Source: an uncultured Clostridia bacterium
GTDB lineage: Bacteria; Bacillota; Clostridia; DUPQ01
DNA: 64,000 bases
Direction: 5' to 3'
Assembly: GCA_963766335.1 (NCBI GenBank)
Contig: CAVXZA010000002.1
Coordinates: forward strand, 1,037,386-1,101,385
Shown here: one piece after another, positions 11,400 to 61,043 of the stretch
Layout: the number at the start of each line of letters is the position of its first letter
Numbering within the stretch: the stretch's first letter is position 1
Translations under genes and position numbers: made by a program
The notes under the pieces: model-generated
What the model was told of the DNA's origin: nothing
Databases searched by the model: none
What the model saw: the letters and a program-made list of their open reading frames with translations, nothing else

Positions 11400-12158
11400 C
11401 TATTTTGATTTAATAATATCCTGCATGGAATATAGTCCTGCGGGTTTTCCTTTTATAAATTGTGCAGCCTTGATAGCACCGGAAGCAAAAATATCCCGTG
11501 ACATTGCTTCATGCCTTAGTTCTATGACTTCATCACGGCCTGCCAGAAGCACGGTATGTTCGCCTACAATCGTGCCTCCACGGACTGCGTGGATTCCAAG
11601 TTCGCCGCCGGTACGTTCTTTCCGGTATCCGGTTCTGTCATATACGGCTGTTTTTGGTTTTTCAAGGACGGAATTGATTCCGTCGGCAATTGCCAGGGCC
11701 GTGCCGCTTGGGGCATCGAGTTTTTTATTATGATGTTTTTCTATTATTTCTATATCAAAGAGTCCCTCTGTGAAAGCCGAAGCTGTTTTGGCAAGTTCAA
11801 TTAAAAGGTTTATCCCCATAGACATGTTTGCGCTATAAAAAACCGGAATAATTTTTGCTGCATTTGACAGGTCATCGACTTGTGTTCCCGAAAGCCCGGT
11901 TGTCGCCATTACCAGCGGGGTTTTGGTTTTCATGCAGTATGCAGTTACATTTGAAAAAGCTGAATGATGGGAAAAATCGATTACCACATCTGCTTCGGCA
12001 CCGCATTCGGATATATCGATGACTACAGGAATATCAAGATCTGTTGGAAGGTTGATATCGCAGCCTGCAATGATACTGACATTATTCATATCATTAACAA
12101 GATTCATTATGACGCGGCCCATCCTGCCGCCGCATCCGTTTAATAATATCTTAAGCAT
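11400..12158 (-). CDS. dapB: 4-hydroxy-tetrahydrodipicolinate reductase
   Basis: The N-terminus LNGCGGRMGR is a Rossmann fold, and the sequence is DapB-like throughout. Last gene of the asd-dapA-dapB operon. Confidence 0.9.
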   Translation of the reverse strand: MLKILLNGCGGRMGRVIMNLVNDMNNVSIIAGCDINLPTDLDIPVVIDISECGAEADVVIDFSHHSAFSNVTAYCMKTKTPLVMATTGLSGTQVDDLSNAAKIIPVFYSANMSMGINLLIELAKTASAFTEGLFDIEIIEKHHNKKLDAPSGTALAIADGINSVLEKPKTAVYDRTGYRKERTGGELGIHAVRGGTIVGEHTVLLAGRDEVIELRHEAMSRDIFASGAIKAAQFIKGKPAGLYSMQDIIKSK

Positions 12159-12166
12159 AATAACTC

Positions 12167-13051
12167 CTATAAAAGACCAAGGTTTTCCATAACTGCTTTA
12201 AGTGCTGCAGTATGGCCTTTTTCCATCTTAACCAAAGGCAACCTGACGTCACCGGTGCAAAGTCCCATTAGTTCAAGAGCTTTCTTTATCGGTATAGGAT
12301 TGACTTCCTGCCCAAGAGCTTTGATTAATGGAAAAATTTTATAATATCCCTCCATGGCTGATTGTGTATTGCCTTTAAGGAAAGTATTGGTAATGAATGC
12401 TGCTTGTGCCGGAATGACATTTGACATAACAGATATGAGTCCCTTGGCCCCAAGTGCCATAAATTCAAGGGTCATCTCGTCATTCCCCGACCAAACATAG
12501 AAATCATTACCCGTTCCATAGCCGACGTCTGCCATCTGGGAAAGATTGCATTCCTTGACACCGATGATATTCGGGACTTTGGATAACTCAATAATCGTAT
12601 CTGCATCTATGTTAATTACTGTTCTGGTAGGCACATTATACAGTATTATCGGAAGATCGACGCTTTTAGCGATAGCCGTATAATGAGCAATGAGACCTTT
12701 CTGGGTAGTTTTATTATAATATGGTGCTGCGGATAACAAGGCATCTGCACCTGCTTCCTGTGCCTTTTTACTGAGCTCTATAGAATGTGCGGTATCGTTG
12801 CTGCCGGTATTGGCAATTACCGGAACCCTTCCTGCTGTTTTTTTAATTCCGAAACGAACCACAGATAAATGCTCCGCGTCGGGCATTGTAGAAGATTCGC
12901 CCGTGGTACCGCAAAATAGCAGAGCATCGATGCCTTCCGCTATCTGGAATTCAATCATATTGCCAAGCGCCGTAAAGTCAACTGCACCTTCCCTGAATGG
13001 AGTTGCGACTGCCGTCGCAGTTCCTGTAAAAATCAAATTATTATTTCCCAT
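12167..13051 (-). CDS. dapA: 4-hydroxy-tetrahydrodipicolinate synthase
   Basis: The motif GTTGES and the DHDPS fold are present, with an RBS GGAG upstream. Confidence 0.9.
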   Translation of the reverse strand: MGNNNLIFTGTATAVATPFREGAVDFTALGNMIEFQIAEGIDALLFCGTTGESSTMPDAEHLSVVRFGIKKTAGRVPVIANTGSNDTAHSIELSKKAQEAGADALLSAAPYYNKTTQKGLIAHYTAIAKSVDLPIILYNVPTRTVINIDADTIIELSKVPNIIGVKECNLSQMADVGYGTGNDFYVWSGNDEMTLEFMALGAKGLISVMSNVIPAQAAFITNTFLKGNTQSAMEGYYKIFPLIKALGQEVNPIPIKKALELMGLCTGDVRLPLVKMEKGHTAALKAVMENLGLL

Positions 13052-13063
13052 TTTAATTAACTC

Positions 13064-14065
13064 CTAAGTATCTTCCCAAAACCTGATTAATTGCTGTGCT
13101 ATCTGAACTGCATTTGTAGCAGCACCTTTTCTTATGTTATCAGAAACAACCCACATGTTAAGACCATTGTCTACGCTTTCATCCCTTCGCAGACGTCCAA
13201 CAAAGGTTTCATCTTTTCCGGCGGCATCCCTCGCAAGAGGGTACACATTATTGGCCGGGTCATCCTGAACAACTATACCAGGAGACGATGCAAGAAGATT
13301 TCTCAATTCGTTCAGGTCGTAATTTTTGTCCAGCTCTACATTTATGGATTCACTATGGCTGCTAAAAACAGGAACACGGACTGTTGTAGCTGTAATCCGA
13401 AGATTAGGGGCATGCATAATCTTGCGGGTCTCCCATATCATTTTCATTTCTTCCTTGGTATAGCCGTTATCCATAAATACGTCGATATGCGGTATGCAGT
13501 TGCCTGCAATCGGATGAGGCATCAGGTAAGGTGCTTCACCGGCAAGCGACCTGCGTAGTTCATCCGTGCCTTTTTTGCCTGCGCCCGATACGGACTGATA
13601 AGTTGAATAAACGATTCTGTTTATTCCATATGCATCAAGCAGCGGCTTTAATGCAACGACCGCCTGTATTGTCGAGCAGTTCGGGTTTGCGATTATACCA
13701 TTGTGCATACCTATATCTTCCGGATTGACCTCGGGTACAACAAGCGGTACATCAGGATCCATCCTCCAGGCGCTGCTGTTATCTATTACCACTGTCCCTT
13801 TTGCAACGGCTGTCGGGGCATATTCCTTGCTGGTTCCCCCTCCTGCTGAAAAAAGTGCTATATCAATACCCCTGTCAAAAGAAGAGTGGGTAAGTTCTTC
13901 AACTATATACTCTTTTCCATTGAAAGATATTGACTGTCCGGCTGTCCTTGATGAAGCGAAAAAGTAAATATCCCCGATAGGAAGATTTCTTTCTTCCAGC
14001 ACTTTTATGAAGGTCCTTCCGACCATGCCGGTGGCACCTACTATTGCAAAACTGTATTTCTTCAT
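13064..14065 (-). CDS. asd: aspartate-semialdehyde dehydrogenase
   Basis: The N-terminus MKKYSFAIVGATGMVG and an active-site Cys region are present. Start chosen at ATG 14065 with GGAGG upstream; the longer track ORF was rejected. Confidence 0.9.
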   Translation of the reverse strand: MKKYSFAIVGATGMVGRTFIKVLEERNLPIGDIYFFASSRTAGQSISFNGKEYIVEELTHSSFDRGIDIALFSAGGGTSKEYAPTAVAKGTVVIDNSSAWRMDPDVPLVVPEVNPEDIGMHNGIIANPNCSTIQAVVALKPLLDAYGINRIVYSTYQSVSGAGKKGTDELRRSLAGEAPYLMPHPIAGNCIPHIDVFMDNGYTKEEMKMIWETRKIMHAPNLRITATTVRVPVFSSHSESINVELDKNYDLNELRNLLASSPGIVVQDDPANNVYPLARDAAGKDETFVGRLRRDESVDNGLNMWVVSDNIRKGAATNAVQIAQQLIRFWEDT

Positions 14066-14103
14066 CAGTTCCTCCCATACGCTACAATTATATACTAATT
14101 TAG

Positions 14104-14305
14104 TAAAAATAAAACCGGTACAGAGCACCGGCAAACACAAATCTGCGATAGTTCTCCATCATTTCGATGACAGTCGCAGGGCTGTTAACCCGGCAACCAG
14201 AACAGCATATCAGGATTATGCCTCCTTCGGCGGTTCCCCCTTTCACCATGCCGATGAAATCCTGATTTCCAAACATGGATACTGATAAAAACCGCGCCTC
14301 TACCA
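14104..14305 (-). promoter_or_regulatory. lysine riboswitch (L-box) with intrinsic terminator, leader of asd-dapA-dapB
   Basis: The minus strand reads GAGGCGC...GGTGAAAGGGGG...GCCGAAGGAGG...CTGTCA...TGGAGAACTATCG. This is followed by the hairpin GCCGGTGCTCTGTACCGGT plus a U-tract, matching the conserved L-box elements. Confidence 0.75.
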
Positions 14306-14379
14306 AATTTTATTAATTTTCATAGAGTATAACAAAATAGAGGAAAGCCTGCAACCTTTTATGGTGCTATAATCTTATT

Positions 14380-17230: not shown

Positions 17231-17231
<1 letters not shown>
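15615..17231 (+). CDS. SpoIID/LytB domain protein (lytic transglycosylase-like amidase enhancer)
   Basis: Signal peptide present. The SpoIID motif [27 protein letters not shown] is present. Length is 538 aa. Confidence 0.8.
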
Positions 17232-19448
<2,217 letters not shown>

Positions 19449-19451
19449 ATA

Positions 19452-19727
19452 ATGGATAGTATTTGGTCAATAGTTTCGATAGTAGCAGTTTTCGGTATCA
19501 TGTATGCGGTGTTGATAATACCCCAGCGCAGAAAAGAAAAGAAAACCAAGGCAATGCTAAGCGCAATGAGGGAAGGCGACACGGTCACCAGCATCGGCGG
19601 AGTCTATGGAAAAGTTGTAAATATTAATGAAGACGACGTCATCGTAGCAACAAGTGTTGAAAACACACAGATTCACTTTAAGAAGTGGGCTATCAGAAGC
19701 GTTGAAACTCCGTCAATAGAAGAGTAA
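19452..19727 (+). CDS. yajC: preprotein translocase subunit YajC
   Basis: 91 aa with a single TM helix and a YajC-like sequence. Conserved tgt-yajC linkage. Confidence 0.85.
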   Translation: MDSIWSIVSIVAVFGIMYAVLIIPQRRKEKKTKAMLSAMREGDTVTSIGGVYGKVVNINEDDVIVATSVENTQIHFKKWAIRSVETPSIEE

Positions 19728-19771
19728 TTCAACTTAAGGACAAACTGAGCGAGAAAATTTGGGAGGGTGGC

Positions 19772-19912
19772 ATGAAACACATTAGAACTATAAATAAAGC
19801 TGAACTTAACAAGAACCTGGACAGCAAAGGCTGCGGCGAATGCCAGAATTCATGCCAGTCCGCCTGTAAGACTTCATGTACGGTAGCAAACCAGGAATGC
19901 AAAAACCAGTGA
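19772..19912 (+). CDS. scfA: SCIFF (six-cysteines-in-forty-five) ranthipeptide precursor
   Basis: 46 aa: MKHIRTINKAELNKNLDSKGCGECQNSCQSACKTSCTVANQECKNQ. This matches the SCIFF consensus closely. The GGGAGGG RBS is present. The ORF is missing from the track because it is shorter than 60 aa. Confidence 0.8.
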   Translation: MKHIRTINKAELNKNLDSKGCGECQNSCQSACKTSCTVANQECKNQ

Positions 19913-19936: not shown

Positions 19937-19967
19937 AAAAAAAGGCGGCCTTGTGCCGCTTTTTTGC
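19937..19967 (+). terminator. rho-independent terminator after SCIFF
   Basis: GGCGGCCttgtGCCGC hairpin followed by TTTTTTG. Confidence 0.5.
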
Positions 19968-19978
19968 AAGGAGATATT

Positions 19979-20488
19979 ATGATTGGAAAGTTTAAGGGGC
20001 AGGAACCGGTCATACATGAAACAGCTTATACTGCACCTTCAGCAGATATCATAGGCAGGGTTGTCATAGAGGAAGACTGCAGTATATGGCATAATTCAGT
20101 CATTCGCGGCGATGTGGATGAGATAATCATAAAAAAAGGTGCGAACATTCAGGATGGTTGTGTGCTTCATTGTAGTGAAAATATAAAAACTATTATAGGA
20201 AGAGGCTCCACGGTTGGGCATAAGGCAGTTCTTCATAGTTGCGTAATCGGGGAGAATTCCCTGATAGGCATGGGTGCGGTATTACTGGATAATGTTAAAG
20301 TTGGAGATAACTGCCTTATAGCTGCCGGAAGCTTATTAACTCCGGGAACCATAATACCTGATGGAAGCATGGTAATGGGAAGCCCCGGGAGGGTAAGGCG
20401 TGAATTAACAAATAAGGAAATTGAGGGCATCAGGCATAATGCCGTTGAATATATAGCCCTTAAAAATATATACAGAGGTGAAAAATGA
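19979..20488 (+). CDS. gamma-class carbonic anhydrase family / hexapeptide-repeat protein
   Basis: ATG 19979 after AGGAGA. Left-handed beta-helix hexapeptide repeats and YrdA-like His residues are present. Confidence 0.75.
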   Translation: MIGKFKGQEPVIHETAYTAPSADIIGRVVIEEDCSIWHNSVIRGDVDEIIIKKGANIQDGCVLHCSENIKTIIGRGSTVGHKAVLHSCVIGENSLIGMGAVLLDNVKVGDNCLIAAGSLLTPGTIIPDGSMVMGSPGRVRRELTNKEIEGIRHNAVEYIALKNIYRGEK

Positions 20489-21144
20489 TAACTCTTCAGG
20501 ATATAAAAAAGAATAACGAAGTCAAGCACCTGTTAAGATTTGCAGCACGGCAGCTCACTGAGATTGGATATACAGAACACTCCTTCAGGCATGTCGGTCT
20601 TACTGCAAAAACCGCAGGGAACATCCTTAGTGAACTTGGGTACGGAGAAAGAGAAATAGAATTGGCCCGAATAGCCGGGTATCTGCATGATATTGGAAAT
20701 GCGGTTAACCGTGTTGATCATGCACATACAGGAGCGACACTGGCTTATGATATTCTCATAAGAATGGGAATGCCGTTGGATGATGCACTTGAAATAATGC
20801 TTGCAATAGGTCAGCATGATGAACAGACAGGAACAGCAGTAAGTTTTATTTCAGCGGCTCTTATACTTGCTGATAAATCGGATGTTCACAGAAGTCGTGT
20901 GAATAATCCCGATAAAGAAAATTTCGGTATCCATGACAAAGTTAACTACGCTGTCGAAAGCTCCAGGATTGAGGTGAATCCTGAGGCAAAAACCGCGGAT
21001 TTAATTCTTACAATTGATACGGAAATATCACCGGTTATGGACTATTTTGAAATATTTCTCGGCAGGATGTCTATGTGCCGCAGCGCTGCAGAGTATCTCG
21101 GCCTAAGCTTCCACCTGGACATCAACGGAACCAGACTACTTTAA
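20485..21144 (+). CDS. HD-domain phosphohydrolase
   Basis: H...HD motif (GYLHDIGNAVNRVDHAHTGA). ATGA overlap with the upstream gene. Confidence 0.7.
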   Translation: MITLQDIKKNNEVKHLLRFAARQLTEIGYTEHSFRHVGLTAKTAGNILSELGYGEREIELARIAGYLHDIGNAVNRVDHAHTGATLAYDILIRMGMPLDDALEIMLAIGQHDEQTGTAVSFISAALILADKSDVHRSRVNNPDKENFGIHDKVNYAVESSRIEVNPEAKTADLILTIDTEISPVMDYFEIFLGRMSMCRSAAEYLGLSFHLDINGTRLL

Positions 21145-21247
21145 TGGGTAATTGGAATATCACCCCTCCTCTATCGTTCCGGTTTTGAAGTTTGGGGGGA
21201 TTTAGTGTATATTAATATGAGCAGAAATGTGTAAAGGAGACATAACA

Positions 21248-23176
21248 ATGTCAAAGGGAAACTACTATATCACGACAGCAATTGTCTATACATCCGGGAA
21301 ACCGCATATCGGGAATACTTACGAAGCAGTCCTCGCTGACAGCATCGCCCGTTTCATGCGAATGTCGGGATATGATGTTTTCTACATGACGGGAACGGAT
21401 GAACACGGCCAGAAAGTTCAGATAAAGGCAGATGAAGCGGGTAAAACCCCGAAGGAATTCGTGGATGAAGTTGCTGCGGAAATAAAACGCATCTGGAAAA
21501 TCATAGGCAGCAGCCATGATAAGTTCATCCGGACAACCGATCCTGACCATGAAAAAATCGTTCAAAAGATTTTTGAAAAATTATATAAACAAGGAGATAT
21601 ATATAAAGGCGTCTATGAAGGCTGGTACTGCACCCCATGCGAATCATTCTGGACCGAGACCCAGCTGATTGACGGCAAGTGCCCCGACTGCCACAGGGAT
21701 GTTGTGAAATCCAAGGAAGAATCGTATTTCTTTAAACTCAGCAAATACCAGGAAAGGCTAATGAAGCATATCGAGGAGAATCCGCACTTCATACAGCCCG
21801 AGTCCCGAAAAAACGAGATGATTAACAACTTTCTGAAACCAGGTCTTCAGGACCTTTGTGTTTCAAGGACCTCTTTTGACTGGGGCGTTAAGGTTCCTTT
21901 TAATAAGAATCACGTAATTTACGTTTGGATTGATGCTCTTAGCAACTACATCACCGGTCTTGGCTATGACCCTGATGGAAACCATGGTGAAATGTTTACA
22001 AAATACTGGCCTGCTGATGTCCATCTGATTGGAAAGGACATCCTTCGTTTCCATACGCTGTATTGGCCGATTATGCTTATGGCTCTTGAAGTAGAGCTTC
22101 CCAAGCAGGTTTTTGGTCATCCATGGCTTAACATGGGAGCAGGAAAAATGAGCAAGTCTAAAGGTAATGTAATGTATGCGGATGACCTTGTGGAATATTT
22201 CGGTGTTGATGCAATCAGATACTTTGTGCTTCATGAAACACCTTTTGCACAGGATGGGACGATTACTTATGAGCTTATAGTTGAACGGATTAATTCAGAC
22301 CTAGCCAACATACTCGGTAATTTGGTTAACAGGACCGTTACCATGGTCAATAAATATTTCGGAGGCGAAATACTTGAACCCGGTGAAAAAGAAGCGGTTG
22401 ATGATGAATTGATTCAGCTGGCCTTAAAAACACCTATTGCTGTTGAAGCTAAGATGGCGGAACTCCGTGTTGCCGATGCGATAAGCGAGATTTTCACATT
22501 GCTCAGAAGAAGTAATAAATACATTGATGAAACAATGCCATGGGTGCTGGGTAAAGATGAAAGCAAGAGGGGAAGACTTGCAACAGTACTGTTCAACCTT
22601 CTTGAAAGCATCAGATTCGCTGCAGTCATGCTTCAGCCTTATATGCCTGAAACTGCAGCTTCCATATTGGAACAGCTTAACACCTGTGTCAATACATGGG
22701 ATTCACTTGCGGAATTCAATGGAATCAAAGTAGGCGACAACGTTGGAAAGGCAAAGATTCTGTTTGCACGTTTGGATACTGAGAAGAAACTAAATGAAAT
22801 TAAAATAGCTGAAGAGGAAAAAGCAGAGTCAGTGCAAAAGCTTGATATTGAAGAACCTATTATAATGGAAGATTTCGCCAAGGTAAAACTACGTGCAGCC
22901 AAGGTGCTTGAAGTTGAAAAAATCAAAGGCACCGAAAAACTTCTTAAACTGATAGTTGACTCAGGAAGCGAAAAACGTCAGATAGTATCAGGTATTGCGA
23001 CTGATTATAGTGCAGAAGAACTGGTCGGTAAGAATATTGTTATTATTGCAAACCTGCTGCCTATTAAACTGAGGGGGGTCCTTTCTGAAGGGATGATATT
23101 GGCGGCTGAAGACGAAAAAGGGCTTAGTATAGTAACCCTTGATAAAGATGTCGAACCTGGTACTCCTGTCAGATAA
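21248..23176 (+). CDS. metG: methionyl-tRNA synthetase with C-terminal tRNA-binding (EMAP-like) domain
   Basis: HIGN and KMSKS motifs and zinc-knuckle Cys are present. The C-terminal domain GKNIVIIANLLPIKLRGVLSEGMILAAE is present. AAGGAGA RBS. Confidence 0.9.
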   Translation: MSKGNYYITTAIVYTSGKPHIGNTYEAVLADSIARFMRMSGYDVFYMTGTDEHGQKVQIKADEAGKTPKEFVDEVAAEIKRIWKIIGSSHDKFIRTTDPDHEKIVQKIFEKLYKQGDIYKGVYEGWYCTPCESFWTETQLIDGKCPDCHRDVVKSKEESYFFKLSKYQERLMKHIEENPHFIQPESRKNEMINNFLKPGLQDLCVSRTSFDWGVKVPFNKNHVIYVWIDALSNYITGLGYDPDGNHGEMFTKYWPADVHLIGKDILRFHTLYWPIMLMALEVELPKQVFGHPWLNMGAGKMSKSKGNVMYADDLVEYFGVDAIRYFVLHETPFAQDGTITYELIVERINSDLANILGNLVNRTVTMVNKYFGGEILEPGEKEAVDDELIQLALKTPIAVEAKMAELRVADAISEIFTLLRRSNKYIDETMPWVLGKDESKRGRLATVLFNLLESIRFAAVMLQPYMPETAASILEQLNTCVNTWDSLAEFNGIKVGDNVGKAKILFARLDTEKKLNEIKIAEEEKAESVQKLDIEEPIIMEDFAKVKLRAAKVLEVEKIKGTEKLLKLIVDSGSEKRQIVSGIATDYSAEELVGKNIVIIANLLPIKLRGVLSEGMILAAEDEKGLSIVTLDKDVEPGTPVR

Positions 23177-30994: not shown

Positions 30995-31140
30995 AAATTA
31001 ATAGATTCTTCAGGGCAGGGTGAAATTCCCGACCGGCGGTAGAGTCCGCGAGCGTAAGCTGAACCGGTTAGATTCCGGTACCGACAGTATAGTCTGGATG
31101 AAAGAAGTAATTTTTTTATACCCCTGAGGAGGGGTTTCTT
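30995..31140 (+). promoter_or_regulatory. FMN riboswitch (RFN element) with terminator
   Basis: TTCTTCAGGGCAGGGTGAAATTCCCGACCGGCGGTAGAGTCCGCGAGC...CCGACAGTATAGTCTGGATGAAAGAAG matches the RFN consensus. It is followed by the hairpin ACCCCTgaggAGGGGT plus a T-tract. Confidence 0.8.
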
Positions 31141-31164: not shown

Positions 31165-31812
31165 TTGGACAAGAGGAGACAAAAAACGATATGGATTGTA
31201 AAAGTTGCAATGCTTTCGGCAGTCGCAGCGATTCTTATGTATCTGGAAATACCCCTGCCGTTTGTCCCGCCGTTTTTAAGGTTGGATTTCAGCGATATCC
31301 CTGCACTGCTTGCAGGATTTGCAATGGGTCCGCTGGCGGGTGTCGCAGTATTGCTGGTAAAAAATGCAGTGCATGCAACAGCCTCATGGTCGTTTCTGGT
31401 GGGAGAACTGGCTAATTTCACAATAGGGGTGAGTTTTGTTCTGCCGGCGGCAATCATTTATCAAAGGCACAAAAACAAGAAAAGTGCAATTATAGGCATG
31501 CTGGTTGGAGGACTGACTATGGCTGTTACAGCTGGTTTTCTTAATGCATTTGTATTAATACCTCTATATGCTACCGTCCTGAATTTTCCGGTTGAAGCTA
31601 TTGTTGGAATGAGTAATGAAGTTAATCCTCTTATTACGGATTTAAAAACACTGATTTTCATTGGAATAACGCCGTTTAATATAGTGAAAGCGGCTGCAAA
31701 TATACTTATTGCGGCACTGATTTATAAACCGTTGTCGCCATACCTGCACCGCGATTCATTGAAAAAACCACCAAAATCCAGTCCGACAAATTATCCTACG
31801 GACACTAATTAA
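31165..31812 (+). CDS. ribU: ECF-transporter S component, probable riboflavin transporter RibU
   Basis: Small six-TM membrane protein directly downstream of an FMN riboswitch. The start is a tentative TTG at 31165 with AAGGAAGGA upstream; ATG 31210 is the alternative. Confidence 0.7.
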   Translation: MDKRRQKTIWIVKVAMLSAVAAILMYLEIPLPFVPPFLRLDFSDIPALLAGFAMGPLAGVAVLLVKNAVHATASWSFLVGELANFTIGVSFVLPAAIIYQRHKNKKSAIIGMLVGGLTMAVTAGFLNAFVLIPLYATVLNFPVEAIVGMSNEVNPLITDLKTLIFIGITPFNIVKAAANILIAALIYKPLSPYLHRDSLKKPPKSSPTNYPTDTN

Positions 31813-32947: not shown

Positions 32948-33033
32948 TACCGGAAAACGGAACATATCTAATCATATTTTCGTATAACAGATAGACGGAT
33001 AAATTCCGTACTTTGATTTCACTAGGAGTGATT

Positions 33034-34278
33034 ATGATGTATAAGAGAATTATTGCAATTATGATTGCCATAATGCTATTAGGGACAGGTTTGGCGGGTT
33101 GTTCTAAAAATGGTGAAGGAAGTTTGACCAACATTCCGAAAGTTAAGGCAGATACCATAGGCGATGAAGTGGTTGATGCTAATTCGCGGTTTGCATTTGA
33201 CATTTTAAAGGCTGTCTATTCAACTGATACAGATGGCAATGTATTCCTGTCTCCGGCAAGCATATCCATGGCGCTTGCAATGACATGGAACGGCGCCAAT
33301 GGAAATACAAAGGAAGAAATGGCTAAGGCGCTTGGGTTCGATGGTGTGAATGACATGCTAATTAACGGCGGATTCGCATACCTGGTTGATGTCCTGAATA
33401 CTGATGCAGACGGCATCACGACCAACCTGGCCAATTCAATTTGGATCAGGGAAGGATTTCCGGTCCTGGACTCATTTAAAAAAACTAATTCCGACTATTT
33501 CGCAGCTGCAATTGAAGAACTTGATTTCTCAAAGGACGAGGCTTCGGATGTCATAAACGGCTGGGTAAAGAAAAATACCAAAGGCCTCATCGATTCAATA
33601 GTTGATGACGATATTCATCCGGCAACAATAATGTTTCTGATAAATACAATATATTTCAAAGGAAATTGGCAGGTAGAATTTGATCCTGACCAGACATATG
33701 TTTCAGATTTTTATAGTAGCGGCTTGCCTGATGGTAAAGTTGACATGATGTCCTATAAGCGGAATACGCTTTTTCATGAAGCTGATGAATATAAAATAAT
33801 CAGCCTGCCATACGGAGACGGAGGAATGTTCATGGACCTGATTCTGCCTGATGAAGGCACGATGATGGATGAATTTGTAAAGCAATTTAACTACGAAGAA
33901 TACATGACTGCACTTAGCAATATCAATGAAGAGCATGATGTAATTGTAGAGATTCCCAAATTCAAGACAGAATATGAGCTTTCGCTTAAAAATGCATTGA
34001 TAAGCCTTGGTGTGGAGGAGGCTTTCACAGGAGCAGCAGACTTTACCGGTATTAATGAGGGTGGCAATATTTTCATAAGCGATGTAAAACATAAGACTTA
34101 CATAGATGTGAACGAAAAGGGGACTGAAGCAGCAGCTGTAACATCAGTTGAAATGAAACTGACTGCAGCAATGGATCCTATTGTATTCAGGGCAGACAGG
34201 CCTTTCCTCTATACAATCCGGGAAGCTGAGACCGACTCAATATTATTTGCAGGAGTCTTTGATACTCCATCAGAATAA
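33034..34278 (+). CDS. serpin (serine protease inhibitor) lipoprotein
   Basis: Serpin signatures NTIYFKGNW and FRADRPFLYTIRE are present. The N-terminal lipobox is LLGTGLAGCS. Confidence 0.8.
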   Translation: MMYKRIIAIMIAIMLLGTGLAGCSKNGEGSLTNIPKVKADTIGDEVVDANSRFAFDILKAVYSTDTDGNVFLSPASISMALAMTWNGANGNTKEEMAKALGFDGVNDMLINGGFAYLVDVLNTDADGITTNLANSIWIREGFPVLDSFKKTNSDYFAAAIEELDFSKDEASDVINGWVKKNTKGLIDSIVDDDIHPATIMFLINTIYFKGNWQVEFDPDQTYVSDFYSSGLPDGKVDMMSYKRNTLFHEADEYKIISLPYGDGGMFMDLILPDEGTMMDEFVKQFNYEEYMTALSNINEEHDVIVEIPKFKTEYELSLKNALISLGVEEAFTGAADFTGINEGGNIFISDVKHKTYIDVNEKGTEAAAVTSVEMKLTAAMDPIVFRADRPFLYTIREAETDSILFAGVFDTPSE

Positions 34279-41352: not shown

Positions 41353-43221
41353 TCATGTTGCAGTGGCCTTTTTTAGCTTGAATTTCATTTTTATTCGGTT
41401 TGAATTTTTCACCGCAATGTATTTTTTGTATTTGCCGTTCCTGTTTCCGAGAATATCTGTTGAGGCTTGGAAATTTCCATCTGTTTCGATAGTGTAAATC
41501 CATCCTAATGCCGAAATTGTAAGACGGTTGTCCTCCTCTTTTATAATAGACTTATCACGGCCGTTTGTCATGAAAGCCGGCGTCAGAAAATAAATTTTAT
41601 CTTCTTCCGGGTTGTTTAAAATTGATTCAATTTCAACCCCTTCGCCGGTAATTTTATAAATTTCTGTAACACCGTCAATCCCTTTAAGAGCTTCCCCTGA
41701 ATAGCTTAATGACAGCACTGTTTTGTCAGGGGATTCTTCAATTACCTCAGTTTTGTGTAATAATCCATTATTGAACGAGTCTTTGAATGCTTCAAAGGAT
41801 CCTTTGCTGTCAAAATTATCCTTAATATAATCAAAGCTATGGCTGCTTTTATTGCTTGCGGTTGCCAGAAATTCTATATCGTTTGATTTATTCCAGCCGG
41901 GCGAAAGCGCCATGGCTTCGGGCACGCAACCCGGCGTGCCGTACCTGTGATGACGAAGAATCCCGGCTGAACCCGAGATAGCCAGCTCAGTTGGAACCCC
42001 GTTTTTATGAATCCGCCCGAGACCGGTGGAATCGTAAAAGAAATCTGCCGCTGTGTCCAATTCTATGGAATATGAAGCGCAGTTTGCAAATACCTTATGG
42101 AAGTGTTCCGTGGTTTCAAATACATATCCGCCCAACTCAGCAGGGCAGGGGAACTCATCTATCGTGTCATCTGCAAAAGGCATTCCTATGAAAAGGAAAA
42201 CACCCATTGTCATCATATATTTGTCAAAATAGCCATAACCTTCAACGCCGAATTTGCTTTCCACAGGGTAGAAATTTTTCATATGTCGGGCGCCGTCATC
42301 AGCTTTAAGCCACCTTGAGATTGATTTTATTGCCAGCCTGGCTGCCCTTTTATACATCCCTGCAAGTTTTAGGTTCCCTTCTTTCTTCCATCTTGTGGCT
42401 TCGTATTCAAAATTGGATGTCAGCAAAGACTCATTAAAAAGATATTGGTTGCTGCGGCCTCCGAATGGGAGCTGGAAAGCCGAAGATTGATAGAATAAGG
42501 CTGTTAATGCTCCTTTTTTAAGATTGTCATCAAGCTTTTTTGCATATTTCCCGTTATAACCGTAGCCAGTAATAAGTTGTGCCTGGACACGGGTCGTAAG
42601 GTCGTAAAGCATTGGATTGTAAGGGTCCATATACATCCCATTATCGTCGAAATACTTAAACTGATGGTCCCAGTATTTATCAAAGAACTCTTCTGTATCT
42701 GTATATCCCTCTGTTTCCAGCAGCCACGAACCGGCCATGGCATATATATTCCAGTTGCGTATGTGATCCCAGCTTTTGCGGTGCGTTTCAGTGTTGCTAT
42801 ACTGTGTTTCAGGGTCAACCTTTCCTAAAAGGGTCAACCACTCTTTTTGTTTTTCATCACTAACAAACGGCTTCATGGCTTTGAAACCAAGCATTGTTTC
42901 TTTTAATGCGAAATCCAGTGTATTTGGAGGAACCTGCCGGTAAAAATCATTACACAGTGCTTCCATCATTGAAAACCACAGCTCTTTATATTCCGGTATC
43001 CGCCCATTGGAAAGCAGGCCCGCGATTCCGCAGGCTATACGTGAATAAGCATGGATGTCGTCAACCATCCCGCCGGGTTCCGGAAGACGGTCTTCAAGCG
43101 ATTTTTTATCATATGCTTTTACACAGAGCTCAATTACATCAAGATAATCTTTTTTTCCAACTCCGGATGTTGTGAAATTCTCAGGCATTTCTGCGTTTTC
43201 TACATATTTGAAAAAATCCAT
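41353..43221 (-). CDS. hypothetical cytoplasmic protein (about 620 aa), family not recognised
   Basis: Long intact ORF inside the arg operon with no signal peptide and no confidently recognisable motif. Start chosen at ATG 43221 with AAGGAAGGG upstream; a GTG at 43236 is the alternative. Confidence 0.5.
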   Translation of the reverse strand: MDFFKYVENAEMPENFTTSGVGKKDYLDVIELCVKAYDKKSLEDRLPEPGGMVDDIHAYSRIACGIAGLLSNGRIPEYKELWFSMMEALCNDFYRQVPPNTLDFALKETMLGFKAMKPFVSDEKQKEWLTLLGKVDPETQYSNTETHRKSWDHIRNWNIYAMAGSWLLETEGYTDTEEFFDKYWDHQFKYFDDNGMYMDPYNPMLYDLTTRVQAQLITGYGYNGKYAKKLDDNLKKGALTALFYQSSAFQLPFGGRSNQYLFNESLLTSNFEYEATRWKKEGNLKLAGMYKRAARLAIKSISRWLKADDGARHMKNFYPVESKFGVEGYGYFDKYMMTMGVFLFIGMPFADDTIDEFPCPAELGGYVFETTEHFHKVFANCASYSIELDTAADFFYDSTGLGRIHKNGVPTELAISGSAGILRHHRYGTPGCVPEAMALSPGWNKSNDIEFLATASNKSSHSFDYIKDNFDSKGSFEAFKDSFNNGLLHKTEVIEESPDKTVLSLSYSGEALKGIDGVTEIYKITGEGVEIESILNNPEEDKIYFLTPAFMTNGRDKSIIKEEDNRLTISALGWIYTIETDGNFQASTDILGNRNGKYKKYIAVKNSNRIKMKFKLKKATAT

Positions 43222-43232
43222 TACCCTTCCTT

Positions 43233-44240
43233 TCACGACTGTGTCATCATGACTGCTTTTTCTGCTGTAATTTCAAATTCGAGTGGTTTTTCTTCAATAA
43301 TATTGCTGATTTCTTTTATCATAGCTTCTGCATATTCCAATACAACGCTGGAGCCGGACACATGAGGCATGCAAATTACGTTTGGAAGATTTCTTAGCTC
43401 ACTATCCGGTGCAAGGGGTTCTTCTTCAAAAACATCAAGTGCGGCATATATTCTGCCGGATTTTAACACTTCTGTTAAATAGGCTTCGTCAATTATGCTG
43501 CCCCTGGCAGTATTAACAAGAAGAGCATTGTTTTTAATGGTGTCAATCCGGTCTTTTCCTATCAGTCTTTGTGAGCCGGGGTTCCGGGAAGCGTGAATTG
43601 AAATTATATCGGCTTTTCTAAACGCAGCATCCAGGTCATGTATGAAATCTACATCGGAATATGCATTGATTACTTCTTTTGTTAAATAGGGATCATATAC
43701 TTTCAGGTTTATATTGAAAGGAACAAGAAGTTCGTATAGGAATTTTGCAATGTCACCGAATCCAATAAAAAGCACATCGGCTCCGTGGAGGCTTTTCATG
43801 TCCCCGTACTCTCCAATACCACTTTTCCAGCCGCCGTTCCTTGTTATATTTGTATATTTAAAGAGTTTTAAACGCGACGCAAGGAAATAAGCCAGCGTGC
43901 TTTCAGCTACGGCCTTCGCCATGACTTTATTTGAGCTTGATACCCGGATTCCCTTTTTATATACTTCGGGACATACTATGTTATATACGCTTCCGGCACA
44001 GTGTCCTATGAACTTAAGGCTATCAGCATTTTCAAGGACCTTTGGTGTAATCTGCGGCGATTGCCAGTGGGTTATGCATACGTCCATGCCTTTGATTTCC
44101 TCCGCTAGCTCTTCTTCTGTCCACGGGCGGTCAAGCATGTTTTGTTTAACATGTCCGAGTGCTTCCAGTTTTTTCATGATTTTACGGGGAAAATATTTTT
44201 CTTTAATCATTCCTTCACAAACACTTAAAAGAATATTCAT
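43233..44240 (-). CDS. D-isomer-specific 2-hydroxyacid dehydrogenase family protein
   Basis: NAD-binding motif GIGEYGDMKSLHGADVLFIGFGDIAKFL and a catalytic His/Glu/Arg region are present. The start overlaps the argB stop (TGATG). Confidence 0.75.
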   Translation of the reverse strand: MNILLSVCEGMIKEKYFPRKIMKKLEALGHVKQNMLDRPWTEEELAEEIKGMDVCITHWQSPQITPKVLENADSLKFIGHCAGSVYNIVCPEVYKKGIRVSSSNKVMAKAVAESTLAYFLASRLKLFKYTNITRNGGWKSGIGEYGDMKSLHGADVLFIGFGDIAKFLYELLVPFNINLKVYDPYLTKEVINAYSDVDFIHDLDAAFRKADIISIHASRNPGSQRLIGKDRIDTIKNNALLVNTARGSIIDEAYLTEVLKSGRIYAALDVFEEEPLAPDSELRNLPNVICMPHVSGSSVVLEYAEAMIKEISNIIEEKPLEFEITAEKAVMMTQS

Positions 44241-47775: not shown

Positions 47776-48339
47776 ATGGACAAGTTTTTAATTGCAGGAC
47801 TGGGGAATCCCGGGATAAGATACCGGAAAACACGCCATAACATGGGTTTTATGGCGCTTGACTATGTCTCGGAAAAATTTTCAGTAAAAGTTAAAAAATT
47901 AAAATGCCGCGCCCTGACAGGTGAAATTAACATCGACGGGGCGAAAGTTATCCTGGCAAAACCTCAGACATATATGAATGCAAGCGGCGAAAGCATCAGG
48001 GAGCTTCTAGCGTACTATAATTTAACCACGGATAACCTGATTGTCATCTATGATGATATGGACATACCTCTTGGGAAAGTCCGAATTCGAAAAAAAGGAG
48101 GGGCGGGAACCCATAACGGAATGAAATCACTCCTGTATCATCTGAAAACAGAGAACTTTATTAGAATACGCATCGGCATTAATGCAAATGAAGGTGAAGA
48201 TACAATCAGATATGTACTTAGCAAAATCACAAAAGACCAGCGCAAAGAAGCTTTCACAGGAATAGAAAAAGCCGCACAGGCATCTGTTGAAATCGTAAAA
48301 AACGGAATCAATGCAGCAATGAATAAATTTAATAAGTAA
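47776..48339 (+). CDS. pth: peptidyl-tRNA hydrolase
   Basis: The N-terminus LIAGLGNPG..Y..TRHNMGF is the Pth signature. Confidence 0.85.
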   Translation: MDKFLIAGLGNPGIRYRKTRHNMGFMALDYVSEKFSVKVKKLKCRALTGEINIDGAKVILAKPQTYMNASGESIRELLAYYNLTTDNLIVIYDDMDIPLGKVRIRKKGGAGTHNGMKSLLYHLKTENFIRIRIGINANEGEDTIRYVLSKITKDQRKEAFTGIEKAAQASVEIVKNGINAAMNKFNK

Positions 48340-48422
48340 TCAATATAGTTTTACTGAAGAACATTAAATTATTCAGCGTTGTTTGCGTCCTTGTAATATT
48401 AGAAAAGAAAGTCAAAAACATA

Positions 48423-51400
48423 ATGAAAATATTACTCAAACCGCTGCAGGACATCCCGCAGTTCGACGGGATTATAAAGACCATTTCAGCCGGAAAAGGA
48501 CCCGTTGGAGTCAACGGCCTGGTTGATCCGGCAAGGGCTATTTTCGCATATGCGCTTTTTCAGAAAACCGGAAGACGATGTCTAATACTAACCCACAGCC
48601 GGGTCAAGGCAAAAAAAATATATGAAGGACTGCGTATATTTGATTCCGACGGTGCATTGCATTTTCCCACAAGGGAACTGATGCCTTTCGAAATAGAAGC
48701 TCGAAGCCACGGTTATGAGACTGAAAGAGTAAATGCACTTTACAGATTCGCCATAAATGATTACTCGGTTGCCGTCGCTCCTATTGAAGCAATGTGCATA
48801 AGAATTCGGCAAAAAGGAGGAATTTCTTAAAAAAGTCATAAACATAGAGAAAGCAAAAGAGTATGAAAGGGACAAACTGTCCGAAGAGCCTTACTGGCAT
48901 CCGGTTATGAAAAATGCGACATGGTTGAAAGCGAAGGCCAGTTCGCGGTTCGCGGAGACATCTTTGATATATATTCACCCGGCAGCGACAGGCCATGCAG
49001 AATTAATTTTTTCGGAGATGAGGTAGAAAATATCAAATTTTTTGACCCGGGCACCCAGCTGTCGGATGAAGAAACTGCAATCTGTATTAATATTGCCTTG
49101 CAGCGAGCAGACCGGCTCACTAAAAGATATCATTGAAAAGTTAAAAGCAGTTCCAAATCCGCCAGCGCCGATTTCCTCGGATATAGAAAAGATTGAAAAC
49201 GGTCTTTTGCATTTTCCGATGGACAAACATTTCGCCTTGGTGGACGGAACCTGTTTTGCCACATCATATATAGATGAAGATACAATCATTATCCTTGATA
49301 ATGATAAACGCTGCCTGCGAAAAATGAATACCGTTCTTGAAAGAATACGGCACCACATGTGAAAAACTTCTTGAAACACAATCCGCCGTGCCTGAATCAT
49401 GCATGATGGTAGCCGGTCTGTTTGAATCAATGGGGAAAAGGGAACCTGGGATTATTATCCCCGACATAACCGGTCCGGATGACGAGTTTAGCCTTTACAG
49501 GCAATTTAGCATACTTACAAGGGAAAACCCGTCTTACGGCGGCAGGATGGACCTGCTTCTAGAGGACATCAGGAAATGGAAATCAAAAGGGCGCAGAACA
49601 GCTCTTATTGCACCGTCAAAAAAGAGCAGCCATATATTATCCGATTACCTTGCATCCAATAATATAGACATACACGGCCGAAACAATTATAACGGAGACA
49701 TACACGCAGGAACAGTTGTCATGCTGGACAACGGACCTGCTGAAGGATTTGAAATACTTGAAGCCGGCCTTTGTGTGGTCGGGAGCGGTAAAATTTTCAG
49801 AAAAAGCAAGAAAGAGCAGACAGAACGGAAAAAGCAAAAAGGCATGGATTTATTCGCTGACTTAAAACCAGGGGATTTCGTTGTCCATGATTACCATGGA
49901 ATAGGCAAATACATAGGTATAGAGAATATCAAAGCCGCGGGAATACGCCGCGATTATGTAAAGGTTGAATATAAAAAGAGCGACTACGTATATATACCGG
50001 TAGATAAACTTGATTCAATCCAAAAATACATTGGAAGCGGGGGAAGGGCCCCGAGGCTGTCAATACTGGGCGGCAAAGAGTGGGAGAATACAAAAGCGCG
50101 GGTTAAGGAATCCGTCAAGAACATTGCCAAAGAACTTGTTGAACTATATGCCAAACGTAAAGCTAACAAGGGGCACAGATATTCTGCCGATACAATATGG
50201 CAGGTGTCATTTGAAGAAGAATTCCCGTTTGAAGAGACAAACGACCAACTGCGCTGCATTGATGAAATAAAAGGGGATATGGAATCCGATATCATAATGG
50301 ACAGGCTTCTCTGCGGGGATGTAGGCTATGGAAAAACGGAAGTGGCGCTGCGGGCTGCATTTAAGGCGGTTATGGATGGAAGACAGGTGGCATTCCTGGT
50401 TCCTACAACTGTGCTTGCCTACCAGCATTACAATACATTTAAAAGCAGGATGAAGAATTTCCCTGTTAACATCGAACTTATGTGCCGTTTCAGAAGCAAA
50501 AAACAGCAGCAGCGGACATTAGAGGGTTTAAGGGCGGGAAGCGTTGACATTGTGGTCGGCACGCACAGGCTGCTTCAAAAAGACATTGTGTTCAAAAAGC
50601 TTGGACTGCTTGTAGTAGACGAAGAGCAGAGGTTCGGTGTAGAGCATAAAGAAACAATTAAGAACTATAAAAACGACATTGATGTCCTTACCCTGACTGC
50701 AACTCCCATTCCGCGGACGCTTCACATGTCGCTGTCAGGTATACGTGACATAAGCGTCATTGAAGATCCGCCTGCAAAGCGGTTCCCCGTCCAGACATAT
50801 GTAATGGAATATGACCCGGATGTAATAAGGGATGCAGTCGACCGTGAAATCAGCAGGGGAGGCCAGGTTTTCTACCTTTATAACCGTGTCAGGGAAATGG
50901 ACAGCAAGTATGCTAAACTTAAACAACTCCTGGGCGATGAGGTAAGGATAGGAATCGCCCACGGGCAGATGGATGAAAATAAGCTTGAAAATGTAATGGT
51001 TGATTTCATCAAAGGCGATTATGATGTCCTTCTATGTACAACAATTATAGAATCAGGCCTGGATATCCCGAATGTCAATACAATGATTATTGAAGACTCG
51101 GACAGGATGGGACTGTCGCAGCTCTACCAGATAAGGGGCAGGGTAGGCAGGTCCGACAAAGTCGCCTATGCATACATAACCCATAAACATGGGAAAGTTA
51201 TAACAGAGGACGCATCTAAAAGACTTGAAGCAATAAGGGAATTCACGGAGTTCGGTTCAGGATTCAAAGTGGCAATGCGCGACCTTGAAATCAGGGGCGC
51301 CGGAAATCTTCTCGGCGCAAACCAGCATGGACATCTTGAAAGGATTGGCTACGATCTATATGTAAGGATACTTAAACAGGGCTGTCAAGGAACTCGGCGG

Positions 51401-51915
51401 GGAAAGTTGAAGAAGAAGAGATTCGGACAGCTGCACTGTTGAACTTAATATAAATGCATTTATTGACAAAGAATACATCAGCAATGACCTGATGCGAATG
51501 GAAATGTATAAGAAAATAGCGGTTGTTTCAGATGAAAAACAGAAAAAGAGACTGCTTAGATGAAATGACAGACCGTTTCGGAACACCGCCTGCACGAAAC
51601 TATGGTGCTGCTTGAAGCGGCTCTTGTAAAAAACCTTGCAGCGGCATGTGGTATTGAATCCGTAACTAAGAAACAAATCAGATATAATATTCACTTTTGC
51701 AGAAGGACAGATTCCCGCCTCCTGAAATTCTTGCCAGGCTTCCTGAAATCCTGCCGGGAAGGGCGGTGGTCAGTATGGGAGTTAAGCCCGGAATCAGGCT
51801 TAATAATTTCAAACGGGAAGATGTAGATTTTTCGGCAATATATAAATTGCTGGCATGTATTGAAAATCAGCAAATCATAATATATAGAAACAGTATGTTA
51901 TCTTGCAAAAGATGA
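48423..51915 (+). pseudogene. mfd: transcription-repair coupling factor Mfd, disrupted by multiple frameshifts
   Basis: Mfd-homologous segments occur in alternating frames (48423-48830 f0, about 48815-48915 other frame, 48921-49136 f0, 49042-49362 f1, 49337-51442 f2, then at least four more frame changes to 51915). The helicase motifs DVGYGKTEVALRAAF and the GDFVVHDYHGIGKY RID region are recognisable. Confidence 0.8.
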
Positions 51916-53301: not shown

Positions 53302-54182
53302 TTGGGACGCAGTAAAAAAACCAACACGATGATGAAAACGCTTGCCGTTGTTTTGGCAATGGCTGTTATTGTCGCTTTCGGAGGAACCGCCGCAGCAGCT
53401 ACGGGAGCTGTGCCGGCGGGCATCAGCTACCATGACGACACGGTATTCAAAGCTGACAAGGGTGCTGATGTATCTATTGAAATAGAAGATGCCGATATCA
53501 GGGACATACTGTCCCTTTTTGCGACTAAACTCGGTGTTAATATGGTATATCTTGGCCAAAGTTTTAAGACAAGTTATACCATATCTGAAGTTGATGCCAC
53601 GACAGCATTTGAGATATTTATCAAAAGCTCCGGTGTTAACGGGGAAGCGCTTAGCTTTATCCGCGACGGCGACCTTCTTTTGGTAGGTCCGGCCGGGGAC
53701 ATGGCCAATAGTTTTTCAGATATGCTGGTGTTCACAAGTTTTGAACTTGAGTACATGACGGCACAGGAACTTTCCGGATTATCTGAGCCAGCTGGGGATT
53801 TATGTTAACGAGCTTTACCATAGACCAGATGACTGACAGAATTTTTGTACAGGGTTTCCCATATGAAGTCGCAAAAGTTAATGAAGTGGTTAATATGCTG
53901 GACAATGATGCCTTTTATCCGGACGGCGGCACGGCATTTAACCTTGTTGCATATAACTTGAATTATATCAGCGCATCTACACTTGACGGCGTAATCGGCG
54001 AACTGGGAATAGAGGCTGATACCATTGAATTGGGATCAAGTCCTTCAACCTTATGGGTAAGTGCGGATACCGACCAGCATACAGTAATATCCCAGTTAAT
54101 AACAAAACTTGATACAGCAGCGAATATAAGCGATAACGAATTCGGTGTATACAGACTAAAATATATTAATATAGACTTGTAA
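53302..54182 (+). pseudogene. secretin-N-domain-like (PilQ/GspD N0/N1-like) protein, frameshifted near 53800
   Basis: Signal peptide present. IEIEDADIRDILSLFATKLGVNMVY resembles the secretin N0/STN domain. The second half, ending VYRLKYINIDL, is N1-like. The ORFs 53302-53808 and 53802-54182 are in different frames. Confidence 0.4.
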
Positions 54183-54190
54183 ACAATGCA

Positions 54191-54817
54191 ATGAGTGAGT
54201 TGGGTTTATGGACCACTGCAGAAGGTGAATCGGGCATGGTCACTGTAATACCGAATACAGTTTTAAGTGAAGACCCTTATGCAATACTGGTTAATTTCAA
54301 ATATATAGATAAAGAAATGGTAGATTTCCTGATTGCAGAGCTGGATACACCTTCAAATAATCCTGAAGACCCGGCATTCTTTATTTATACATTTACGAAT
54401 ATGTCTGCTGAAACAGCCCTCGGCAGGATTGATGCATTCGGTGGGAAAAAAGCGTTTGATTCAGATGAAGTTGAATTCAAGGAATTTTCATTCTCAGGAC
54501 TTGGCAAACAGCTTATGGTGCTTTGCACTAAGAGTGAAGAGGCTGATGTAAGAGCATTTCTTGCAGAGATTGATACTCCGGGTACAACGATGATAGTTGT
54601 TGTTGACACAAACGGCGGAGATATTCAGGCAAGAATCCGGCTGATTGACCGAATACCGCTTATTTCATATATATCCGGAGTGCCGGAAAATCATTTTAAA
54701 GTATCAGGAGACATATCAAAAAGCGCTTCACCGCAATATGTAATGTGGGTTGAGGATACACCTGAAAATATTGAAAAGGTTAAGGCTGCAATAGCAAATA
54801 TTGATTCAGGCGAATAA
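54191..54817 (+). CDS. hypothetical protein with secretin-N-like repeats (no beta-barrel secretin domain)
   Basis: 208 aa. It has similar short alpha/beta N-domain-like segments (EADVRAFLAEIDTP...IQARIRLIDRIPL). Confidence 0.35.
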   Translation: MSELGLWTTAEGESGMVTVIPNTVLSEDPYAILVNFKYIDKEMVDFLIAELDTPSNNPEDPAFFIYTFTNMSAETALGRIDAFGGKKAFDSDEVEFKEFSFSGLGKQLMVLCTKSEEADVRAFLAEIDTPGTTMIVVVDTNGGDIQARIRLIDRIPLISYISGVPENHFKVSGDISKSASPQYVMWVEDTPENIEKVKAAIANIDSGE

Positions 54818-54835
54818 TGACCGGCTGAGGATAAA

Positions 54836-57180: not shown

Positions 57181-57187
57181 TGTTGAT

Positions 57188-58127
57188 ATGATTATAAAAA
57201 GAATAGCAGGGGTTGAGTTCAACGATGATACTGCTAAGGCGGTAGAAATTTATGGTTCTGAAAAGTCGCATAAGATTACTGCTCTTGGCAATGTTATATA
57301 TCTGAGAATGTCATAACTGACGGTGTCTTGGTAAATAATGAAGCCGCTATTGCTGTATTGAAGGAATTATGGAAAAAATATTCTTTTAAAACCAAGGAAG
57401 TAATATTTGGTGTTGACAATAAATATGTGCTTGTCAGATATGCAGATATTGTAAGAACAGCTGATAAAAAGTTTCAAAATGATGTAGAGGCTCAGATACA
57501 GCAGTTTCTGCCTGTTGATAAAAATTCAGTAGAGACCGATTACTTCCCCTGAATGAACACCGAAGACGAGGAAGGTAAAAAGAAAACAAAAACACTAATT
57601 GTTGCTGCAGGGAAGAAAATGCTGAGTGAATATATTGAGATATTCAAAGGAGCAAACTTAGAATAGAGGATATTGATGTTAATACATTGGCAATATACAA
57701 ATTGATTCCGGAAATGAAAAAGACAAAGGAACGGTTATAATTAATTTAAAAAAGATATGTTCAATCTTCTGATTGTAAGAGATGGTCAGCCGTTACTGGC
57801 AAGAAATATAATGATTGATACAAGCAGTGCACTTAATGAAACCGAATTTGTTCAGGAATATTTTGAAGCAATAAACAAAGACATAATATCTTCCCTTGCA
57901 TATTACAATTCAATTACCAGGATTATATTGAGAATATATATATAACCGGATATGGTGTATGGAACGAGGGAATGGTACAGTTCCTAAGAGAAACAACCAA
58001 AGCAGATGTAAAAGTTGTTAATCCTTTCATAAATGAAAAAAACAAGTCGGGAACACCTGACGTGCCAAGACCCTATGAATTTGCTGTTGCATATGCACTG
58101 GCACAGAGGGGATTGGAGAGTGAATGA
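57188..58127 (+). pseudogene. pilM: pilus assembly protein PilM (actin-like ATPase), frameshifted (at least 6 sites)
   Basis: PilM-like pieces are scattered over three frames: MIIKRIAGVEFNDDTAKAVEI, LVNNEAAIAVLKELWKK, EEGKKKTKTLIVAAGKKMLSEYIEIFKGANL, IENIYITGYGVWNEGMVQFLRETTKADVKVVNPF. Confidence 0.65.
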
Positions 58128-58128
58128 T

Positions 58129-61026: not shown

Positions 61027-61043
61027 CGATTGGAGTGATGATT

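Follow-up and report, generated by a model that had tools for sequence, protein, structure and literature searches.

The 64-kb stretch of DNA that we analysed (hereafter the window) carries, on its plus strand, the gene order queA, tgt, yajC, scfA, a hairpin that runs into six T residues, a gene for a gamma-carbonic-anhydrase-like protein (gamma-CA), a gene for an HD/HDIG-domain protein (HD) and metG. The features of this locus are the following:

17231-18256, plus strand: queA (NF001140, 498 bits)
18285-19448, plus strand: tgt, with the start probably at 18306 (TIGR00430, 561 bits)
19347-19375, plus strand: sigma-70-like site TTGATG-17-TATAAT, candidate promoter for yajC-scfA (consensus match only, 10/12)
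19452-19727, plus strand: yajC (TIGR00739, 66.8 bits), ending 44 nt before scfA
19761-19767, plus strand: strong ribosome-binding site GGGAGGG, 4 nt before the scfA ATG, read from the sequence
19772-19912, plus strand: scfA, encoding a 46-aa SCIFF ranthipeptide precursor (TIGR03973, PF13165; dN/dS 0.02-0.07 against relatives)
19939-19965, plus strand: terminator-like hairpin GGCGGC / loop CUUGU / GCCGCU (fold and consensus scan)
19979-20488, plus strand: gamma-CA-like hexapeptide-repeat protein (NF050158, 182.9 bits, below the cutoff of 250; synteny)
20485-21144, plus strand: HD/HDIG-domain protein (TIGR00277, 28.7 bits; PF01966 on orthologues)
21227-23176, plus strand: metG (ORF; Pfam tRNA-synt_1g and related families on the orthologue of contig L084)

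The initial annotation had named gamma-CA, HD and metG as the genes that follow the peptide gene, and both the ORFs and their family matches agree with this order.

The scfA reading frame extends from an ATG at position 19772 to a TGA at positions 19910-19912 of the plus strand and its product is MKHIRTINKAELNKNLDSKGCGECQNSCQSACKTSCTVANQECKNQ. This 46-aa ORF is a genuine SCIFF (ScfA) precursor: the NCBIfam model TIGR03973 (six-cysteine ranthipeptide SCIFF) aligns with it from end to end (model positions 1-43 of 43) at 82.6 bits, well above the cutoff of 50, with an E value (1.4e-23) that rules out a chance ORF, and PF13165:SCIFF is recorded on an identical peptide from a metagenome contig. All six cysteines (positions 21, 24, 28, 32, 36 and 43) are present in the spacing CGECQxSCQSACKTSC, and so are the donor Cys32 and the acceptors Thr34 and Thr37, the positions that are cross-linked in the peptides CteA and Tte1186a (PMC8326336). 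The leader comprises about residues 1-20 and its N-terminus, MKHIRTINK, fits the conserved MKHI(K/R)T start. Hence, the earlier description of the peptide as a textbook SCIFF is borne out by the model score, the six cysteines and Thr34/Thr37; that the ORF was unannotated is consistent with the database records, in which the exact peptide appears solely on an ENA contig and is missing from the NCBI genome where the proteins of the adjacent genes are recorded. The host belongs to the Clostridia, given that its close relatives are named 'Clostridia bacterium' at NCBI and that spoIID lies nearby. SCIFF peptides are nearly universal in Clostridia, yet their biological role is unsettled. The evidence on this role so far consists of one in-vitro cross-link and a proposed function in quorum sensing (PMC8326336).

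A consensus scan of the 44-nt gap between yajC and scfA detected no promoter-like site, so that the yajC transcription unit probably ends with scfA. The hairpin downstream of scfA has an 11-pair stem with an A-run on one side and six T residues on the other; its core of five G-C pairs and one G-U pair is extended by A-U pairs and then followed by UUUUUU, and it ends 13 nt before the start of the gamma-CA gene. With these properties, the 19939-19965 segment is predicted to be an intrinsic (Rho-independent) terminator. The start of the HD gene overlaps the stop of the gamma-CA gene.

Neither scfB, the gene for the radical-SAM/SPASM maturase of SCIFF peptides, nor any other radical-SAM/SPASM gene, nor an scfB remnant was found within the 64-kb window. 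The motif CxxxCxxC occurs in only two antisense ORFs, which are located inside the PBP2 and spoIID genes; a tblastn search of the window with two ScfB proteins gave a best E value of 0.45, and a hidden Markov model built from 130 ScfB sequences gave a best E value of 0.15 against every window ORF with a length of 25 aa or more. In about 46 of the approximately 60 long window ORFs, scans with Pfam and NCBIfam revealed no PF04055 domain, the matches being to housekeeping genes only; the other long ORFs include those for carA, carB, an FMN reductase and MFS, GFO and DUF188 proteins, and several of these are covered through the annotation of their L084 orthologues. These four lines of evidence uphold the previous statement that the window contains no radical-SAM protein. 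The spacing between scfA and the gamma-CA gene is 66 nt, which leaves no room for a remnant of scfB. No TIGR03974 (ScfB) gene is present within about 500 bp of scfA, and there is no TIGR04086 (DUF3792) gene directly upstream of it; tblastn searches failed to detect a TIGR04086 gene either in the window or at the corresponding loci of the clade described below. Genes for secDF are likewise absent from the window.

Several other features of the window were recorded in the course of this analysis. A lysine riboswitch (RF00168, 87 bits; 14141-14310, minus strand) lies upstream of an asd-dapA-dapB operon (11400-14140), and an FMN riboswitch (RF00050, 113 bits; 31002-31113, plus strand) precedes a gene for an ECF-transporter S-component (31165-31812). 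A bacterial serpin (PF00079, 372 bits) is encoded at 33013-34278 on the plus strand and is also present in L084. The gene mfd for the transcription-repair coupling factor (48336-51912, plus strand) is split into at least six or seven reading-frame pieces, with breaks near 48830, 49130, 49340, 51430, 51540 and 51600, while the 48 kb upstream read cleanly; it is either a pseudogene or the site of local indel errors in the assembly. A cluster resembling type IV pilus or type II secretion (T2SS) genes (53302-59288, plus strand) seems fragmented as well and comprises a fragment of 175 aa whose match to T2SSE is limited to positions 220-279, a T2SSF fragment of 229 aa and a PilO-like ORF, together with several short ORFs that match no family; it is followed by a gene for an intact 346-aa T2SSE ATPase at 59986-61026. 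Three long ORFs at 41353-43236 (minus strand), 61035-62084 (plus strand) and 62098-63885 (plus strand), encoding 627, 349 and 595 aa, respectively, had no Pfam match at E <= 1e-3.

The closest lineages with a complete SCIFF cluster are represented by contigs L090-L092, L096-L098 and L099, whose Tgt proteins are 76-77% identical to that of the window. In L090 (ERZ27245378), L099 (GCA_026414765.1) and L096 (GCA_974330325.1), the gene order is yajC-TIGR04086-scfA-scfB-(gammaCA)-HD-secD-secF; the ScfB proteins score 706-708 bits against TIGR03974 (cutoff 425), and the TIGR04086 proteins score 92-98 bits. Among the best 120 of more than 8000 matches, the ScfB of the sister lineage is closest to those of Acetivibrio and Pseudoclostridium. 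In the more distant Clostridia L038, L041, L033 and L029, which come from a Tgt-anchored contig scan (the best among the matches listed being 74% identical), scfB begins 4-54 nt after scfA. Collectively, scfB immediately follows scfA in 12 of the 12 canonical contigs examined, with gaps of 4-193 nt, and adjacency has been reported for 234 of 234 cases (PMC5300114); the assertion that scfB normally lies immediately downstream of scfA is thus well founded. The gamma-CA gene, which follows scfB in canonical relatives (synteny in L090, L099 and L038), occupies the place of scfB in the window, and metG stands where the canonical relatives have secD-secF after the HD gene.

Two further constituents of these loci deserve mention. 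TIGR04086 (DUF3792) is matched at 43-98 bits (cutoff 30) by genes of L090 (7758-8189), L099 (7163-7606), L096 (7198-7662), L033 (4936-5319) and L029 (16336-16737), and no such gene is present in the segment 19452-19772 of the window. By its position directly 5' of scfA in each of the canonical loci examined and across distant Clostridia, the small membrane protein of this family looks like a third SCIFF component. The gamma-CA and HD genes form a pair (window 19979-21144; L090, 10001-11220; L099, 9390-10635; L087, 1577-2744) whose ends overlap or nearly abut, and which is positioned directly 3' of the SCIFF genes in canonical and scfB-less loci alike.

In the initial annotation, the terminator behind the peptide gene had been taken as a sign that scfA is uncoupled from its maturase. 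This argument does not hold. A hairpin with a U-run also separates scfA from scfB in each of the four canonical loci that we folded (L090, L099, L096 and L038), and these hairpins, among them that of L090 with its 14-bp stem, are stronger than the one in the window; the terminator therefore says nothing about uncoupling. L084, L093 and L087 have a hairpin in the corresponding place too. The structure is ancestral and belongs, as an attenuator-like element, to the inherited make-up of the SCIFF operon. Such an element after the precursor gene is to be expected if more precursor than enzyme is produced.

An scfA gene without an adjacent maturase gene was present on twelve contigs from twelve samples, which represent five species-level lineages: the window and L001; L084-L086; L093-L095 (including GCA_035405405.1); L087-L089 (including GCA_016938455.1); and L100. 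No ScfB-like ORF was found on the DNA fetched for them. The lineages of the window, L084-L086 and L093-L095 share the order spoIID-queA-tgt-yajC-scfA-hairpin-gammaCA-HD-metG. In L087-L089 and L100, a gene for an NlpC/P60 protein on the opposite strand is situated between yajC and scfA and FGGY kinase genes follow HD, with the scfA-gammaCA-HD triad unchanged. The inserted gene encodes an NlpC/P60-SH3 peptidase (L087, 73-1302; L088, 365-1609; L100, 4318-5565), and the gamma-CA/HD pair thus persists beside the SCIFF gene in spite of changes on both outer flanks. In L087 and L100, scfA is preceded by a strong promoter of its own, TTGTAA-18-TATAAT with an upstream TG. This promoter-like site would mean that, in the L087/L100 sub-lineage, expression of scfA was re-established after the gene had been cut off from the yajC transcript.

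A neighbour-joining tree of Tgt and QueA rooted on L038 placed the window, L084, L093 and L100 in one clade, with the canonical group as its sister. The tree is matched by the SpoIID identities, which amount to 53-84% inside the clade versus 33-40% outside of it. Because the sister lineages are canonical and the scfA-only loci form one clade, scfB and TIGR04086 would have left the locus once, in a common ancestor; the simplest reading is a single ancestral change that removed scfB, TIGR04086 and also secDF and was inherited clade-wide. Within the clade, gamma-CA proteins are 51-77% and QueA proteins 68-83% identical. The clade is a family-level group of uncultured Clostridia, and the arrangement in it is old and, on the simplest reading, of one origin. 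The view that the peptide is uncoupled from its maturase is therefore correct insofar as scfB is missing from both locus and window; it needs to be amended in that the situation is not peculiar to this genome but clade-wide and that the TIGR04086 gene is missing as well. Similarly, the suggested check for an scfB gene between scfA and gamma-CA in relatives gave a divided answer: the gene is there in sister lineages (L090 and L099), but absent from 12 of 12 clade contigs. In the literature on orphan SCIFF peptides, we found nothing relevant.

Despite the separation from scfB, the scfA gene has been maintained under strong purifying selection of housekeeping grade. Its dN/dS ratio (Nei-Gojobori) between the window and L084, L093 and L087 is 0.044, 0.070 and 0.020, respectively, with synonymous sites near saturation in these comparisons; the corresponding values for tgt and yajC are 0.026 and 0.072. 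Within the Cys-rich core, eight codon changes between the window and L084 are synonymous and none is non-synonymous. It is the most conserved gene at the locus, as illustrated by the pN values against L087 (scfA 0.07, HD 0.20 and gamma-CA 0.33). The leader of the window peptide is identical to that of L087 at 15 of 20 positions, with HD proteins that are 71% identical, whereas the leaders of the canonical L090 and L099 agree at only 10 of 20 positions, with HD proteins that are 81% identical. Hence, the leader is better conserved in the orphan clade than in its canonical relatives, even though the clade is the more divergent group. The orphan peptides (window, L084, L093, L087 and L100) also have derived features in common, namely a leader of the type TINK[AP]ELNxNL..KG and Asn26, which gives CQNSC in place of the canonical CQ[TA]SC with Thr or Ala. 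Leader segments of such precursors bind the RRE domain of the maturase (PMC6231123), so that the conserved orphan leader suggests that a recognizing partner still exists. Taken together, the strong purifying selection on leader and core, as read from these alignments, favours a trans-acting maturase over a maturase-less relic.

We are moderately inclined to the explanation that scfA, still at its ancestral site, encodes a functional SCIFF precursor on which a ScfB protein encoded elsewhere acts in trans, and we regard this as the most likely mechanism. According to this proposal, scfA would have been left 3' of queA-tgt-yajC once scfB and TIGR04086 had been removed in the ancestor of the clade. 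The gene would be transcribed together with yajC, with most transcripts stopping at the hairpin and read-through feeding the gamma-CA and HD genes. Residues 1 to about 20, which make up the leader, might then form a beta-strand that docks onto the RRE domain belonging to a distant ScfB that would be encoded elsewhere in the 2.45-Mb genome, and this radical-SAM/SPASM enzyme could install the thioether from Cys32 to Thr34/Thr37 in trans, as CteB does on CteA. Every ScfA is expected to have a ScfB, the two forming a strictly paired system (PMC5300114), and this expectation, along with the conserved leader, supports the proposal. What speaks against it is that the searches described below showed no ScfB of this genome or clade, that TIGR04086 and scfB are both gone while the 141-bp gene between them has stayed, which needs two events, and that at most one ranthipeptide cluster has been reported per species (bioRxiv 10.1101/2025.02.12.637840). 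The loss of both partners from the locus fits a loss of the system as well as a relocation.

The main rival to modification in trans is a genome-wide loss of ScfB and TIGR04086, after which the SCIFF peptide was kept for a ScfB-free role, for instance as an unmodified Cys-rich or metal-binding peptide, or as a substrate for some unrelated enzyme; we hold this to be possible but rather unlikely. In 12 of 12 clade contigs, the locus lacks both partner genes, and Asn26 and the TINK[AP]ELNxNL leader could mark a changed partner or function. Moreover, no clade ScfB was seen among the best 120 of more than 8000 matches, whose entries describe cluster representatives only, to the ScfB proteins of L038 and L090, and none was found on known clade contigs among the members of ten multi-member ScfB clusters. 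Two ScfB candidates, P0302 and P0273, were considered as relocated copies and rejected since both belong to canonical loci by context. These negative results carry little weight: ScfB diverges about as fast as QueA (74% and 71% identity, respectively, between L090 and L099), so that a clade ScfB would be expected to share roughly 64-70% identity with the query, no more than the lowest listed matches (69-72%), and the matches listed, being the best 120 of more than 8000 and representatives only, could not reliably show it. Genome-wide loss has to contend, in addition, with the unusually conserved leader, whose only known role is the binding to the RRE domain of the maturase, with the invariance of the cross-link residues and with the strict pairing of ScfA and ScfB in curated knowledge (PMC5300114).

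The remaining explanations fare worse. A takeover of the role of ScfB by the gamma-CA and HD pair, as a new SCIFF tailoring system, is improbable: scfA, gamma-CA and HD do stay together in L087 and L100 although both flanks have changed, and the gap between scfA and the gamma-CA gene is just 36-66 nt, but the same pair also follows scfB in the canonical loci of L090 and L099 and is hence an inherited neighbour and not a replacement, and the queA-tgt-yajC-secDF neighbourhood represents housekeeping synteny. To our knowledge, neither family modifies peptides. Decay of scfA as a relic after an operon deletion would accord with the lack of an adjacent maturase gene and with the gene being uncalled on the NCBI record; yet scfA has stayed intact across five species-level lineages that share no more than 51-77% identity in their gamma-CA proteins, has retained its ribosome-binding site and terminator, and possesses its own promoter in L087 and L100, and the dN/dS of 0.02-0.07 at saturated synonymous sites rules out a pseudogene, which makes this explanation very improbable. 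An assembly artefact that removed scfB might be suspected, as the source is a single 2.45-Mb contig and the mfd region shows several frameshifts. The same junction nonetheless recurs in independent assemblies, short-read as well as metagenomic (ENA, JGI, Logan and NCBI), and some of these are 99.3-99.9% identical to the window; with twelve independent contigs an artefact of this kind is ruled out for practical purposes.

A precursor that has been retained alone at its ancestral site for a long time and under very strong selection amounts to a natural experiment. Should ScfB act in trans, mining tools for ranthipeptides that rely on adjacency would miss or mis-score such systems, and the clade would offer a clean case for the co-evolution of leader and RRE domain; the pairing of ScfA and ScfB has been used to train family models (PMC5300114). 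If ScfB is absent, the clade points to a maturase-independent function of SCIFF. Were ScfB and TIGR04086 indeed lost genome-wide, an outcome that we consider doubtful, the role of SCIFF would be essential without a dedicated maturase or would have been captured by a different enzyme, and Asn26 and the frozen leader would be signs of a new partner. The practical consequence is modest either way.

The characterized SCIFF ranthipeptide systems are CteA/CteB of Acetivibrio thermocellus (PDB 5WGG and 5WHY) and Tte1186a/Tte1186 of Caldanaerobacter subterraneus. The window peptide shares with CteA and Tte1186a the MKHI(K/R)T N-terminus, the CGECQxSCQSACKTSCTV core and Cys32, Thr34 and Thr37, and the ScfB of the sister lineages is about 72% identical to CteB. 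In both characterized systems, the maturase gene is located directly 3' of the precursor gene; in contrast, the window is free of scfB over at least 19.7 kb to the 5' side and 44 kb to the 3' side of scfA, and a TIGR04086 gene is absent as well. A mirror image of this situation is given by the model NF040492 ('ScfB-related radical SAM/SPASM orphan maturase'), which describes a ScfB-like enzyme without an adjacent SCIFF; none of 63 representative ScfB matches reached this model at E <= 1e-215, and no connection between the model and the clade of the window emerged.

Precursors encoded at a distance from their enzyme have a precedent in the prochlorosins, whose ProcA precursors are encoded away from the single maturase ProcM and are recognized through a conserved leader. 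The ProcA peptides are multi-copy lanthipeptide precursors with hypervariable cores, whereas the window encodes a single ranthipeptide precursor with an invariant core, for which the trans-acting enzyme is only proposed. Another comparison is that with L090, L099 and L096, which are syntenic with the window for asd-dapA-dapB, spoIID, queA, tgt, yajC, scfA, the hairpin, gamma-CA and HD; unlike these lineages, the clade of the window is without TIGR04086, scfB and secDF at the locus, and its SCIFF peptides carry Asn26 and a distinct, more conserved leader. The locus thus presents a known peptide family in an orphan arrangement that extends across a whole clade and is undescribed, and as such a variant of a known system and not a new one.
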